Source of the DNA: Promethearchaeota archaeon
GTDB taxonomy: Archaea; Asgardarchaeota; Lokiarchaeia; Sigyniarchaeales; SOKP01
Assembly (NCBI GenBank): GCA_008080735.1
Contig: SHMW01000004.1
Coordinates: 51,169-115,168 of the forward strand
Length of the DNA stretch: 64,000 nt
Direction of reading: 5' to 3'
Positions 1,164-6,070 of the stretch are shown here, piece by piece; the first letter of the stretch is position 1; the number at the start of each line of letters is the position of its first letter. The position numbers were made by a program, and so were the translations under genes. The notes beneath the pieces are model-generated. The model worked only from the letters and a program-made list of their open reading frames with translations, had not been told where the DNA came from and searched no databases.

Positions 1164-2879
1164 TTAATATGTTAATTCTAAAAATTGAGCGACTTCTGTC
1201 AAGGATGCTCTATAACGTTTAAAACTATAAAGATCTGGTCCAAATATATGGATTAATTTTTTTATTATCTCATTAGGCGCTTCTTTAGGAAATAGTTTGT
1301 ATTTTTCGTATTTTCTTTCTTCAATTACTATTGCTGATTTCAGCTCAAATAATTTGTTAATTGCTTCAGTATTTGGATAATTCAGTTCCACGGTAATCAA
1401 TTCCCCAGATTGAGGTATTTTTTCTATGAGTTCTTCTTTGGTTCCACATTCTAAACCTTTTTCTGTAATAGTTAGTACCTTATCACAATCAGAAATAATG
1501 GTTTCTGGACCGTGAACTATTAATGCTACATGAAACTCTCTTTTTACATCTTCTAAATATTTCTTAAATTTCTCGTATTGGAGCCGATTTAAAATACCCT
1601 TTGGAAGTGAGAACATAATGATATCAGGAGATTGTATAAGAGCCCGAGCAATACAAAATAGAAAATAATCTAACGCTTTTAAATCAGATACTGTATTTTT
1701 TCTTTTATTATACACTCCCGTAATTTGAAGTGCCCTCTTCCTAAGTTGTCGTCTTTCGCGATAATCCTGTAGAAATGATACGCTTTTCCAAAAAGGTCCT
1801 TTCGTCATCCATTCATCAAACAGAGTTGTAAGCTCAGACTCTCGTAAAATATTCATAAATTCTTCTTTGCTCCGTTGTCCCTTTATCTTTGTTTCCACAT
1901 TATATTTAATCGCCTTTTTCAGCTTCATGCCCGCCATTTTAGAATCAATTGCTTCAGGAACAATGAATATCTTTTCTAAATCCTCTTCAGTGGTTAACTG
2001 AATAAATTTACCGAATATTTTTATAGTACCCGAAAACTGATGGCTTTTTCCTGCGATCGTAGAAAAAAATCTCATTATATTAATCTGTTCTCTACTTGAT
2101 TCTGAGGAACCTTCATATAAAATTCCTAATGATTGTCCTCTCGTAAGCCTAAAACTTATATCTTCCAATTCATCGCTGATTGAGACATCTTCTAATAAAA
2201 GATGTTGATAATTTTTGTAAAAATTCCGAATCTCTAAAATAGATAGAATAATATCTATTAATTCCTCAATTAAATCGATAATATGAGGTGGATTTAACTC
2301 ATCCCAATTTCTAATAATATCTAATTGGGAAAACTCTTCTAGTTTTATTATTCGGGACAGAAAACGTGAGAAATTTATATTTGGTTGAAGCGGGTAATTT
2401 TCAAAATTGATATCCAATTGTACATAAAACCCTGGAAAATAAATTCTTACTCTTCGATGATAAGGTATCTGGTCGAGTTGATAATTCTCAAAATTATCAT
2501 TGAGAAGTTCTAATTCTCTATCTACTTCTTTTAAATGGTGTTGAAATTCCCTCTCGATTAATTTATCAATTCTCTGAATGATTTTTCTTGGACTTATTAA
2601 ACCATCCTCGTCAAAATCCGGTTCGACCAAGATTTCATTAAAATCTACTGTCGTTTCTATTGGGGTATTGATTTTTAATAGTGGAACACCTTTTTCTAAT
2701 ACATCCGTGTTAGTAAAGAATAAAACCTCGATAAAACTTTTTTTATATTCTAAATCTAAAACGGTCGCTAATCCAAAGGTCCCTTGCCGAAAGATTAACC
2801 AATATTTTTCTGAAAACCGAATTGCATCAGTTATTTTTTTTCTGAGAATTTCTAATTCTTCTTTCCTTGTTCTACTCAA
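1164..2879 (-). CDS. UEV/RWD-like domain fused to a degenerate ABC ATPase
   Basis: INFENYPLQPNINF...LDIIRNWDELNPPHIIDLIEEL is an E2/UEV-like pattern without the Cys. The ABC scaffold follows, with eroded Walker A and B (IARALIQSPDIIMFSLP). Start is probably TTG 2879 after GGAGGTG, overlapping the upstream stop (ORF track gives 2927). Confidence 0.65.
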   Translation of the reverse strand: MSRTRKEELEILRKKITDAIRFSEKYWLIFRQGTFGLATVLDLEYKKSFIEVLFFTNTDVLEKGVPLLKINTPIETTVDFNEILVEPDFDEDGLISPRKIIQRIDKLIEREFQHHLKEVDRELELLNDNFENYQLDQIPYHRRVRIYFPGFYVQLDINFENYPLQPNINFSRFLSRIIKLEEFSQLDIIRNWDELNPPHIIDLIEELIDIILSILEIRNFYKNYQHLLLEDVSISDELEDISFRLTRGQSLGILYEGSSESSREQINIMRFFSTIAGKSHQFSGTIKIFGKFIQLTTEEDLEKIFIVPEAIDSKMAGMKLKKAIKYNVETKIKGQRSKEEFMNILRESELTTLFDEWMTKGPFWKSVSFLQDYRERRQLRKRALQITGVYNKRKNTVSDLKALDYFLFCIARALIQSPDIIMFSLPKGILNRLQYEKFKKYLEDVKREFHVALIVHGPETIISDCDKVLTITEKGLECGTKEELIEKIPQSGELITVELNYPNTEAINKLFELKSAIVIEERKYEKYKLFPKEAPNEIIKKLIHIFGPDLYSFKRYRASLTEVAQFLELTY

Positions 2880-5800
2880 TTTCTGGCACCTCCATTGCTC
2901 TAAATCTAAAGTATTGTTCCATAACACTGTCCGATTGCTTTAATCCAAGTATACTGTTTTCTCCAAACGTTTTTTCTAGCTCCTCGCGAACTTCATTCAA
3001 ATTAAGGTTCGTGAGCAATGCAAAATCCGTCCCTACCTTATTTTCCAATGCCTTGTCTATTCCTTCAATTTTCTCTAATCTCTCAACAGCATCTTCTTGA
3101 ATATCGTAGAAGAAAAGCTCAATAGTTCTCCCATCACCGGGTAATTGAGACAATAGTTGTCTAGGCGTGCCAAAATCGATCATACCCCTTCCTCTTCCAA
3201 ATACAACTACTTTATTACAGAATCGTGATTCTTCAGGATAATGACTGATTACTATTAAGGTGGTATTATATTTCTCATTAATTTGAGTAAGTGCGAGCCA
3301 TAAATTCTCACGCACAACTGGGTCTAAGCCCGAAGTAGGCTCGTCCAGTATGCAAAAGATTGGATTATGAATCAGACCCATAGCAATACTCACCCGACGC
3401 TTCTGCCCACCCGATAGATTTTTTACAAGCTCATTCATCTTATCTTCAATTTCGAGACTTCGAAGAAGTCGTTTGGACTTGCTTACTATTTCTTTTTCGG
3501 TTAGACCATATTGCTTTCCAAAATAGATAAGGTTTTGCAGAGTAGTAAAATCAGTATAGATCTTGCCTAAATCTTGAGGAACATAACCATAAATAGGTCT
3601 AATTTTCCGTTTATTTTTTTTTACATCCATTCCATAAATTTCACATATTCCCGTATATTTGCGCATTCCTAATAAAGCTTTTACGAAGGTGGACTTACCC
3701 GCTCCACTTTCTCCTAAAACGCCCAATATCTCACCGTGTTCTAATTCAAGCGAAACACCATCCACAATTAGTTTCTTTCCGATATAAATATCTAAATTTT
3801 CACAATAAACCGCTGAAAAACGTTTAAGATAATTTATATTTAAATCTCCTTCTAGTCCGATCATTGACTTTAAAATTTTCATCACGCGTTCATTAAGATA
3901 AGACAATATACTGATGACGATGAAAGCTACTATGAGCAGTGCTTCTGATATCATTAACCATATTAATAAATTACTCCACGGCAATGGATCAAATGCCTGG
4001 TCATATCGAATTTCATCTATGATCACTAAACCATATGGCGTGTTTCTTAAATCGCCCCCAAATGATGGAATATCGCCAACCCCTCCCGTATTTAGACTAA
4101 TGCATCGTCTATACCATTCGGTAAGAGTTTTGATATCTTCGGGTTGTGAACGATATCGATATAAAGCAATCGAACCTAAATAGGTAGATATGAATGAGGA
4201 GGGTAATTCAGTTAATTGGGAAAGAAACGGGATAATATTAAAGCTCCCCTCCTCTTTTTGGGCGCCTTTTAAAAATTCTATTGCAGCAATTTTAGAAAGA
4301 GGTTCTAAATTCAATATTTTATGAATTTCCAATCCATAATATGTAGAGATTACATCCGAATGAAATCCGTGAATAATGGAAAATCCTCCATCGGGATTCT
4401 GTCCAGAAGAGATCCAGTGAGTAAGAGTATTTTGATCTATTAGATTAAGAGCATTTAGATCATTCAAACTTTTAATTGCCCAATAGGTACTTTCTGTGGT
4501 GGAAATATTCGTGTCAATCAGATCTTTAAGAAGTAACTCATAAGCAGGTCCGAAATATGATAAAAGTAACTCAAAATCCTCCCCAAGTTTGAATCCTCCA
4601 TCCGGATTCTGTAAATTAGCTAAATAATTGACTGTTGCGGTCACATTTGGGAGATTTTGAAGCGTATACGGTTTAAATAACTGGTATAGAAATACAGCGC
4701 AGTAAGTGGAAAATATTGATGAATTAGCTAAAGGTTGGGAGCCGAATCCCCCATCCTCGGGATTATAACACGAATTTACAAAATTTATTATGCTATTTAT
4801 ATCTATGTATGTTATATATTTTTCTGAATTCCAATTATAAAGAGCCAAAACGCCGAGATAATTGATTTGAAGATTCGTCTCACCGATGAGACCATTGAAG
4901 GCTTGATATTCATACAACCAATTATAATAGTTTATTTTAAAAGAATCATCAATTACTAAACTACCATTTTTTTCTAATAAAAAGATTGAATTCATTCCAC
5001 CCCATCCCGATGTGAAATCGGAAACGTTTATCGCCCAATGAGGACCAAATCCGCCGTCCAAATTAGTACAATTTGTTACAAATTCTTTAGTTTGTGTTTG
5101 ATTAATAAAAAAACTATTATTAAAATGATAAATATTCCATAATGAATAATAAGTTGCCGATATGTCTGAAATCGCGGCTTGAGTAGATGATCTGAACCCC
5201 CCATCCAATGGATTATACAATAGATTATAATATCCGAAAATTGCTAATTCTTCTGAAGAATTATATGTATACCCCATTTCTAAATACGCTCGAACGCCAT
5301 AATATGTGGTTTCAGCGGTCACTGTCGTATAGGAACGATTAGAATACCTATAACTCCCAGAAAATCCTATTGAGTAGTTCCCTAACAATTTAATATAAGC
5401 GGTAATAGACGCATTATTCGTTTCGAGAATAGAGTTAGCGTTGAGTCTTTTTACGAGCTTAATTGCATAGTATGTAGAGATGATATCTGCCTCGGGGACT
5501 TCCTCATTATATTTAAATCCCATCCCCCCTTCATCTAATGAATTATTGATGTAATCGATTGTCCGATTTATTCTATCTTGATGCTCGGGTGCATCTAAAT
5601 AACTCCCGTTGAGCAAATCGATCGTTTCAATAACCTTATATGTAGAATACATATCGCCAAGACCTCCTATATCAGAATAAGACCCATCGGGATTTTGTTT
5701 TTCAAATAAATAATCTAAGAAAAATTCCCGCTTACTCTCGCTTAGGTTGGGATTATTCACAGGATGGACAAAATGAGATGTGTTAAATAATGGACTGGAA

Positions 5801-6039: not shown

Positions 6040-6070
6040 TATTATTCACCTGGTTTATGTATTGCTTTTT

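Follow-up and report, generated by a model that had tools for sequence, protein, structure and literature searches.

An ABC ATPase extended through the membrane into a predicted extracellular double toroid of prenyltransferase fold in a Lokiarchaeia operon

We analysed a 64,000-nucleotide stretch of DNA (hereafter the window; G+C ~32%) from a Promethearchaeota archaeon of the class Lokiarchaeia (GenBank assembly GCA_008080735.1, contig SHMW01000004.1, positions 51,169 to 115,168 of the forward strand). On its minus strand the window carries a gene whose product, here called the toroid-ATPase, joins in a single chain a basic tail, a first transmembrane segment (TM1), a 648-aa ectodomain made of prenyltransferase-type repeats, a second transmembrane segment (TM2), a linker, an ATP-binding cassette (ABC) ATPase and a C-terminal domain. 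The gene is present in single copy in its own genome, and its nearest database relatives all come from Loki-type Asgard metagenome genomes. The nucleotide-binding domain (NBD) of the toroid-ATPase is referred to as NBD2, and that of a soluble ATPase encoded in the same operon as NBD1. The parts of the gene are listed below, with residues numbered from the TTG codon at 6000.

6001..6039, minus strand: probable cytoplasmic basic tail at the N-terminus, (M)DRKKKRRIKYLL, present only if translation starts at the ATA codon at 6039
5929..6000, minus strand: TM1, signal anchor, residues 1-24 (hydropathy; a helix in the AlphaFold2 model)
3985..5928, minus strand: predicted extracellular domain, residues 25-672, 12 PFTB-type repeats in two alpha6/alpha6 toroids (Pfam, AlphaFold2, VIA, Foldseek)
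3895..3978, minus strand: TM2, residues 675-702 (hydropathy, AlphaFold2 model, column counts)
3811..3894, minus strand: basic juxtamembrane linker, residues 703-730 (low model confidence)
3136..3810, minus strand: ABC nucleotide-binding domain NBD2, catalytic motifs intact (PF00005, motifs)
2872..3135, minus strand: C-terminal alpha/beta domain of ABC-2-type NBDs, with the stop codon (model strands and helices at residues 958-1036)

Architecture and topology of the toroid-ATPase

When read from its first TTG, the frame covers 2872..6000 and encodes 1042 aa, while from stop to stop it contains 1057 codons. An initial annotation, made from the sequence alone, had assigned the gene to 2872-6051; the frame is confirmed, and the upstream limit at 6051 takes in the stop codon TGA (6048-6046). 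The same annotation described a basic and hydrophobic N-terminus. The hydrophobic segment corresponds to residues 1-24, and the basic stretch, DRKKKRR, would belong to the protein only if translation started at ATA: it lies upstream of the first ATG, GTG or TTG codon, none of which is found 5' of 6000. At this point the frame reads TGA ATA ATA ATA GAC AGA AAG, and a Shine-Dalgarno-like box, GGTGA (6050-6046), is located 6 nt upstream of the third ATA (6039). Because of the position of this box, and because homologs begin with MDRRKKR or MDRKYKRR (another N-terminus found is MKKIDRKKKRR), ATA 6039 is likely the start codon, in which case the protein would begin with MDRKKKRR. Alternatively, the start has been lost and translation re-initiates at TTG 6000, producing a protein devoid of the basic tail. 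Depending on the codon used, TTG 6000 or ATA 6039, the protein is ~1042-1055 aa long.

The ATPase part matches ABC_tran (PF00005, 1.4e-25 over residues 747-890). Its motifs comprise Walker A (GESGAGKST, 763-771), Q809, LSGGQ (862-866), Walker B (FCILDE, 882-887, with D886-E887), SGLD (890-893) and H920, and all of them are invariant in the 41 homologs (51-77% identity) on which conservation was counted column by column. By its motifs NBD2 qualifies as a catalytically competent ABC ATPase, as the initial annotation had stated. The C-terminal domain is included in alignments with 4yer and NosF spanning more than 310 columns, and the best fold matches found with Foldseek included TM_1403, NosF and ABCA NBDs with C-terminal domains. 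Among NCBIfam models, the NBDs best match DrrA, NodI and RbbA, in every case below the family cut-off (DrrA, 171 bits vs a cut-off of 312). The fold search with the whole protein returned NBD matches only, and the fold of the ectodomain, described below, was obtained from a model of the ectodomain alone.

Hydropathy analysis revealed only two hydrophobic segments in the protein, residues 1-24 and ~675-702. A K/R-rich segment (K708, K711, K719) follows TM2, acidic residues precede it, and homologs carry a K/R cluster before TM1. Since there are two transmembrane segments, since the charges obey a positive-inside pattern and since the NBD is necessarily cytoplasmic, the 648 residues between TM1 and TM2 are predicted to lie outside the cell; this is the sole topology fitting the evidence. 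The display of the barrels outside, and the presence of an ectodomain, a transmembrane helix and an intact NBD in one chain (Pfam, hydropathy, motifs), had both been proposed in the initial annotation. The ectodomain is also richer in N, S and T and poorer in K and R than the NBD part (N 9.4, S 9.6, K 3.4 and R 2.3% vs 5.1, 5.1, 8.1 and 5.4%).

Residues 25-672 contain 18 N-x-S/T sequons (more than 15 had been noted), vs 2 in the cytoplasmic 335 aa, and in the 41 homologs there are 2.3 sequons per 100 aa outside and 1.0 inside. Sequon numbers exceeded those of their own shuffled controls by a similar factor in both parts, indicating that the excess outside results mostly from the N/S/T-rich composition. 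The positions of five sequons are kept in at least 33 of the 41 homologs. The initial annotation had called the ectodomain glycosylated; we regard N-glycosylation as no more than plausible.

The membrane segments and the linker are themselves conserved. W675, at the outer edge of TM2, is found in 41/41 homologs and the intramembrane E686 in 40/41, which argues that TM2 is not a passive anchor. N17 in TM1 is kept in all 37 homologs covering that column, and K711, K719, Y724 and L725 are conserved in the linker. In the full-length model (mean per-residue confidence, pLDDT, 86.8) a long TM2 helix precedes a linker in which residues 705-721 have pLDDT values below 50.

The ectodomain matches the Prenyltrans family (PF00432, 4.6e-36) in three stretches. 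GG-type repeat motifs are found at ~12 positions, 8 of them with a literal GG[FYMV]; at least 8 QNxDGG(F/Y)-type repeats had been counted initially. Modelled alone, the ectodomain gave a structure of high confidence (pLDDT 93.1, predicted TM-score, pTM, 0.92) containing ~26 helices, and its two halves are weakly similar to each other (BLASTP 4e-07). The twelve repeats, the number of helices and the similarity between the halves together indicate two alpha6/alpha6 toroids, with boundaries at residues ~25-345 and ~346-672. The most conserved stretch, residues 521-680, is proximal to the membrane. The top VIA matches were beta subunits of protein prenyltransferases (Z 25-27, root-mean-square deviation, rmsd, ~3 A over 274-291 residues), while Foldseek placed RabGGTase beta first (TM-score 0.71, rmsd 2.5 A over 293 columns, 19-20% identity) and phmmer matched the ectodomain to prenyltransferase beta subunits (E 1.3e-08). 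Model and fold searches therefore agree with the two PFTB-type alpha/alpha barrels suggested by the initial annotation. Single-barrel matches cover model residues 3..643; to judge from these ranges alone, the first helix may pack against the C-terminal barrel, and both membrane helices would then lie at the same ring.

Other toroidal families ranked lower in VIA: class II terpene cyclases had Z 17-19, glycosidase-type, epimerase and thioester barrels Z of at most 18, and thioester (TED) domains Z 15-16. A weak Pfam match to the cyclase family PF13243 (1.8e-06) was also obtained. When both barrels were superposed on squalene or oxidosqualene cyclases the rmsd was 8-13 A, indicating that the barrels are arranged differently from those of class II cyclases. 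A motif scan of the ectodomain detected no DxC, D.D[DE] (DxDD), DDxxD, NSE/DTE, CGE[QN] or LanC-type motif. The four conserved cysteines occupy repeat-consensus positions, and the only well-conserved histidine is H43, conservation being partial for H528 and H547. The zinc ligands of RabGGTase beta are D238/C240/H290. When the ectodomain was aligned by hhalign to a RabGGTase-beta orthologue (P0228; E 5e-148 to PDB 6o60_B), the zinc-ligand columns contained T/E, S and S; the register between repeats is uncertain, and no register gives the triad. Furthermore, the PPTA alpha subunit (PF01239) was not found in the organism's own genome, which is 93% complete. Invariant polar residues are nevertheless present at funnel-rim positions (D549, S552, T553, D643, D650, R652, N653).

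Several identities were rejected on these grounds: a class II terpene cyclase, by the missing DxDD motif and the different barrel arrangement; a TED domain, by the missing CGE[QN] motif and the low Z; and a functional protein prenyltransferase beta subunit, by the loss of the zinc triad, the missing PPTA partner and the predicted location outside the cell. The toroid pair is apparently non-enzymatic, which extends the doubt about catalysis that the initial annotation had based on the missing DxDD motif.

Conservation of the fusion and of its operon

The fusion would be suspect if it were absent from relatives, and it was found in all of those of full length. A word-indexed search yielded 935 relatives, and the best 120 of these 935 are all full length with both PF00005 and PF00432. 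In an exhaustive search with the ectodomain only, 23 clusters scored below 1e-30, their full-length members measuring 1042-1153 aa; weaker matches share the repeats only. Six of six distant representatives (28-36% ectodomain identity) carry ABC_tran. Misassembly or chance fusion is thereby rejected, all full-length relatives of the ectodomain being ~1040-1150 aa long and ABC_tran being present in the best 120 and in the six distant ones scanned, and to judge from these sequences the toroid-ATPase fusion is obligate. Database labels of the relatives mention only "ABC ATP-binding" or "prenyltransferase repeat" and, in some cases, "protein geranylgeranyltransferase type II".

In a set of 400 genomes of the phylum, the ectodomain was detected in 85, always in frames of ~1,050 codons except where a contig end truncates them; the ectodomain query left the remaining genomes unmatched. 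All 85 belong to the window's own class (75 of the 134 genomes of family f1, plus families f2 and f28-f31). Distribution is patchy within genera: the gene is present in 6/6 genomes of g1, 21/54 of g2 and 26/42 of g5, and in 0/5 of g4, including 100%-complete genomes. A search with the whole protein recovered a further full-length copy, 36% identical, in a genome of family f22 (G062), which the ectodomain-only query had missed.

Two further PF00432-positive frames occur in the organism's own genome (G000), outside the window, at C26:26125-26715 and C4:7842-8447 (363 and 1490 codons); the protein search did not detect them as ectodomain relatives.

The NBD relatives that come closest in other families of the phylum (42-48% identity; loci L013, at G038:C1:2404000-2422000, L014, L015 and L017) have a soluble N-terminal extension of 240-300 aa, without transmembrane segment or toroid, and their neighbours are one ABC-2 permease and a second NBD. 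These loci were rejected as instances of the same system, as the soluble extension replaces the TM-toroid-TM module. At L013 the NBD relative adjoins a 1410-aa subtilase with a weak, below-cut-off match to ABC_transp_aux / GIFT.

The toroid-ATPase gene lies in an operon whose order is the same in 8/8 relatives of the family: permease 1, permease 2, NBD1, toroid-ATPase, a ~570-aa protein and a ~267-aa protein. In the window these partners are:

9896..11035, minus strand: ABC-2 permease 1, 379 aa, with an outside loop of ~145 aa between its TM1 and TM2 (PF12698 1.9e-26, hydropathy, synteny)
8658..9899, minus strand: ABC-2 permease 2, 413 aa, with an outside loop of ~150 aa (PF12698 2.3e-29, hydropathy, synteny)
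6071..7101, minus strand: NBD1, soluble ABC ATPase (PF00005 5.3e-25), split by a 32-nt insert at 6579-6548
1164..2927, minus strand: 587-aa protein with an N-terminal domain, a dead NBD and a C-terminal domain (BLASTP, profile, motif loss, synteny)
330..1130, minus strand: 266-aa membrane protein with a soluble N-terminal domain of ~125 aa and hydrophobic segments in residues 130-256 (hydropathy, synteny in 8/8)

A relative whose ectodomain is 26% identical likewise keeps the two permeases and NBD1. G062 retains the first five genes of the operon, the fifth being shortened to its NBD-like part (335 aa, without the N-terminal domain).

Each permease has six transmembrane segments and matches PF12698/PF01061. 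With E 6.6e-27, the permease profile covers the entire membrane domain of PDB 9ju6/8z01/8yzp (391-789 of 9ju6). These entries were named "ABC transporter G family member 23-like" by their depositors and may represent the arthropod TcABCH-9C. According to a commentary on Chen et al. 2025 (PMC12578276), ABCH-9C pumps ceramide as well as lipophilic insecticides. By gene content and NBD type, the operon probably belongs to the ABC-2 / type V exporter class.

The insert in NBD1 breaks the Walker B / D-loop region (LDEPTT / GVD), and its deletion restores a single frame of 332 aa; NBD1 orthologues are intact in 4 relatives and split in 3. In the 587-aa protein, which is syntenic in 8/8 relatives, Walker A, signature and Walker B are all degenerate; its relation to NBDs was established by BLASTP against NBD2 (8e-05) and by profile against NBDs of the PDB (1.9e-08). 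The first ~240 aa of this protein gave no Pfam or NCBIfam match, the PDB profile matches being confined to the NBD half. The soluble domain of the 266-aa protein likewise gave no Pfam or NCBIfam match, and a weak lead to Roadblock/longin-type clusters (0.82). The atlas scores of these two domains, 0.78-0.82, are to be read as a lead only, and we do not adopt UEV/RWD or longin as labels for them.

Between permease 2 and NBD1 the window contains a 313-aa tetratricopeptide-repeat gene and an 88-codon open reading frame (7309-8510, minus strand), which are found in 0/9 of the relatives' operons compared.

Possible functions of the complex

We favour, at about even chance, a reading in which the toroid-ATPase is the NBD2 of a heteromeric, lipid-exporter-like ABC-2 / type V pump whose acceptor is tethered to it outside the cell. 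An NBD1-NBD2 dimer would power the permease pair in extruding a lipophilic cargo from the membrane; in an archaeon this cargo would most likely be an isoprenoid-based lipid or a lipid-modified molecule. The tethered toroids would stand beside or atop the two ~150-aa outside loops of the permeases and serve as a non-catalytic acceptor or shield, using the funnel that holds the prenyl chain in prenyltransferases. The covalent link would fix a 1:1 stoichiometry and set TM2, with its buried glutamate, against the permease helices, without transmitting force through a rigid rod. We attribute to the link a role in stoichiometry and placement, not that of a rod, because residues 705-721 are not modelled as rigid. 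The dead NBD and the small membrane protein would act as cytoplasmic regulators or adaptors.

Several points weigh against this exporter reading. Neither a conserved biosynthetic neighbour nor co-occurrence with squalene/phytoene synthase points to a cargo. The operon encodes three NBD-like proteins for two permeases, so that the partner of NBD2 might be the dead NBD instead of NBD1. The hydrophobic character of the toroid funnel is assumed from the fold; the likeness of the permeases to an arthropod lipid pump leaves the substrate unfixed; and the linker may be ordered in the complex.

The initial annotation had suggested that the barrels accept an isoprenoid made by genes of the same neighbourhood, which are present in the window:

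21388-29370: isoprenoid cluster encoding an Rce1-like CAAX-protease-family protein, mevalonate diphosphate decarboxylase, HMG-CoA reductase, an amine-oxidase-type desaturase, squalene/phytoene synthase and HMG-CoA synthase

In relatives neither linkage nor co-occurrence holds. HMG-CoA reductase is located on another contig than the operon in 5/5 relatives, even where the operon contig measures 108 kb, and the proposed link of the toroids to the mevalonate pathway is not supported. The squalene/phytoene synthase family (SQS_PSY) is found in 8/135 genomes of the family vs 76/135 for the toroid gene, and at least one of the genomes with SQS (G292) gave no match to the toroid; a link to squalene or carotenoid synthesis is not supported either. 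This ligand assignment, like the corrinoid one considered below, fails because it was based on the neighbourhood in a single genome and is not conserved in relatives. All archaeal membrane lipids are isoprenoid, and an isoprenoid lipid cargo in general is untouched by these tests, which remove the specific argument from neighbourhood. The rarity of SQS_PSY suggests that within the family squalene/carotenoid synthesis is an unusual trait of this genus.

A more ambitious form of the exporter reading is possible, and we hold it tentatively: in the archaea most closely related to eukaryotes, the operon may encode an undescribed lipid-handling machine. Its ABCH/ABCA-like type V pump would deliver either an isoprenoid lipid or a surface molecule carrying a lipid anchor straight into the covalently tethered, catalytically silent double toroid, and on the cytoplasmic side the dead NBD with its extra domain and the small membrane-anchored protein would couple the pump to eukaryote-like regulatory domains. 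If true, this would be a way, specific to Asgard archaea, of building or reshaping their surface or protrusions, and would place a eukaryote-type lipid exporter and the prenyl-binding beta-subunit fold in one Asgard complex.

The "receptor-like" description of the initial annotation corresponds to an outside-in sensor, in which the toroids bind an extracellular ligand and switch, via TM2 and the juxtamembrane segment, the ATPase and the module formed by the dead NBD and the small membrane protein. Such a role would account for the strict synteny of the dead NBD, with its extra domain, and of the 266-aa membrane protein, for the conservation of the linker residues and of E686, and for that of the membrane-proximal part of the ectodomain. 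However, the linker between TM2 and the NBD is modelled as disordered, for which reason we do not favour this description; two complete permeases and a second active NBD, that is a full pump, always accompany the gene, and no kinase or transcription factor is conserved next to the operon in the relatives compared. We regard a sensor as unlikely.

It is similarly improbable that ATP hydrolysis inside performs work outside with nothing crossing the membrane, as in LolCDE, MacB, FtsEX and NosDFY, for instance by pulling lipid-anchored proteins or polyprenyl intermediates into the funnel. In its favour, enzymes with the prenyltransferase-beta fold bind a peptide along with the prenyl chain, the best fold matches of the NBD include NosF of NosDFY, and large outside modules are present on both permeases and on NBD2. 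However, the permeases are of the ABC-2/ABCH type, for which the solved example forms a substrate tunnel crossing the membrane (PMC12578276).

Enzymatic prenyl transfer or terpene cyclisation by the toroids outside the cell, with the pump supplying the substrate, is very unlikely. The best fold and sequence matches of the ectodomain are enzymes and the polar residues of the funnel rim are invariant, but the reading is rejected because the motifs of these enzymes are missing and the PPTA partner was not found. In addition, to our knowledge no prenyl-diphosphate donor is to be expected outside the cell.

The last proposal, which takes up the corrinoid binding suggested by the initial annotation, is that the barrels capture a corrinoid in the manner of the alpha domain of transcobalamin and intrinsic factor and feed its uptake. 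The following genes speak for it:

11354-13045, plus strand: B12-binding corrinoid protein and URO-D-family methyltransferase pair, divergent from the operon
18012-18593, minus strand: ATP:corrinoid adenosyltransferase

Cobalamin carriers do use an alpha6/alpha6 barrel, but we consider this proposal hardly credible: the B12-binding/URO-D pair is a cytoplasmic, methyltransferase-type module absent within ~8 kb of the operon in 8 relatives, no cobalamin riboswitch and no Rfam family at all was found in the window, the transporter is of the exporter type (DrrA/NodI/ABCH-like), and no cobalamin carrier is among the 50 best VIA fold matches of the ectodomain (vs Z 27 for prenyltransferases), a family not listed there not being thereby excluded.

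Relation to known systems

ABC ATPase subunits are normally soluble or fused to a permease, and literature searches found no paper describing an ABC ATPase extended through the membrane into surface toroids. The toroid-ATPase forms a family that is restricted to one Asgard class, abundant there (hundreds of sequences) and under clear purifying selection. An ABCH/ABCA-like pump is combined here with the prenyltransferase beta toroid, both of them folds with roles in the handling of lipids and prenyl groups by eukaryotes, and the family could bear on the building of the unusual Asgard surface and on the prehistory of eukaryotic lipid export and of prenyl-binding proteins. The novel points of our analysis are the failure of the isoprenoid and corrinoid tests, the phylum-wide count, the probable ATA start and the conserved glutamate of TM2. 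For annotation, the label "protein geranylgeranyltransferase type II" is functionally wrong for these genes.

The toroids share with the beta subunits of protein prenyltransferases (RabGGTase/GGTase-II, GGTase-III, GGTase-I, FTase; PF00432) the QNxDGGF-type repeats and the alpha6/alpha6 fold. They differ in being predicted outside, membrane-tethered, in tandem and fused to an ABC ATPase, without the Asp/Cys/His zinc site and without a detected PPTA. Archaeal homologues of prenyltransferase subunits are common, without evidence of an active heterodimer (Surkont and Pereira-Leal 2016, PMC4915359). Class II terpene cyclases (squalene-hopene cyclase, oxidosqualene cyclase, drimenyl-diphosphate synthase) also contain two barrels in one chain, whereas the toroids are arranged differently and lack DxDD.

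With DrrAB, NodIJ, RbbA (YhiH) and the PDB 9ju6 chain, the operon shares the C-terminal domain of the NBD, the six-TM permease and the large loop between TM1 and TM2 of the permease. It differs from them by its two permeases and two active NBDs, by the TM-ectodomain-TM extension of NBD2, and by the dead NBD and the small membrane protein. NosDFY with its periplasmic NosD on an ABC-2 permease, LptB2FGC with its single-TM LptC bearing a periplasmic acceptor domain, and ABCA1 with its extracellular domains likewise combine an outside module with an ABC core to take up or pass along a hydrophobic or otherwise awkward cargo. In these systems, however, such a module either is its own protein or belongs to the permease, whereas in the toroid-ATPase it is fused to the ATPase itself through the membrane.

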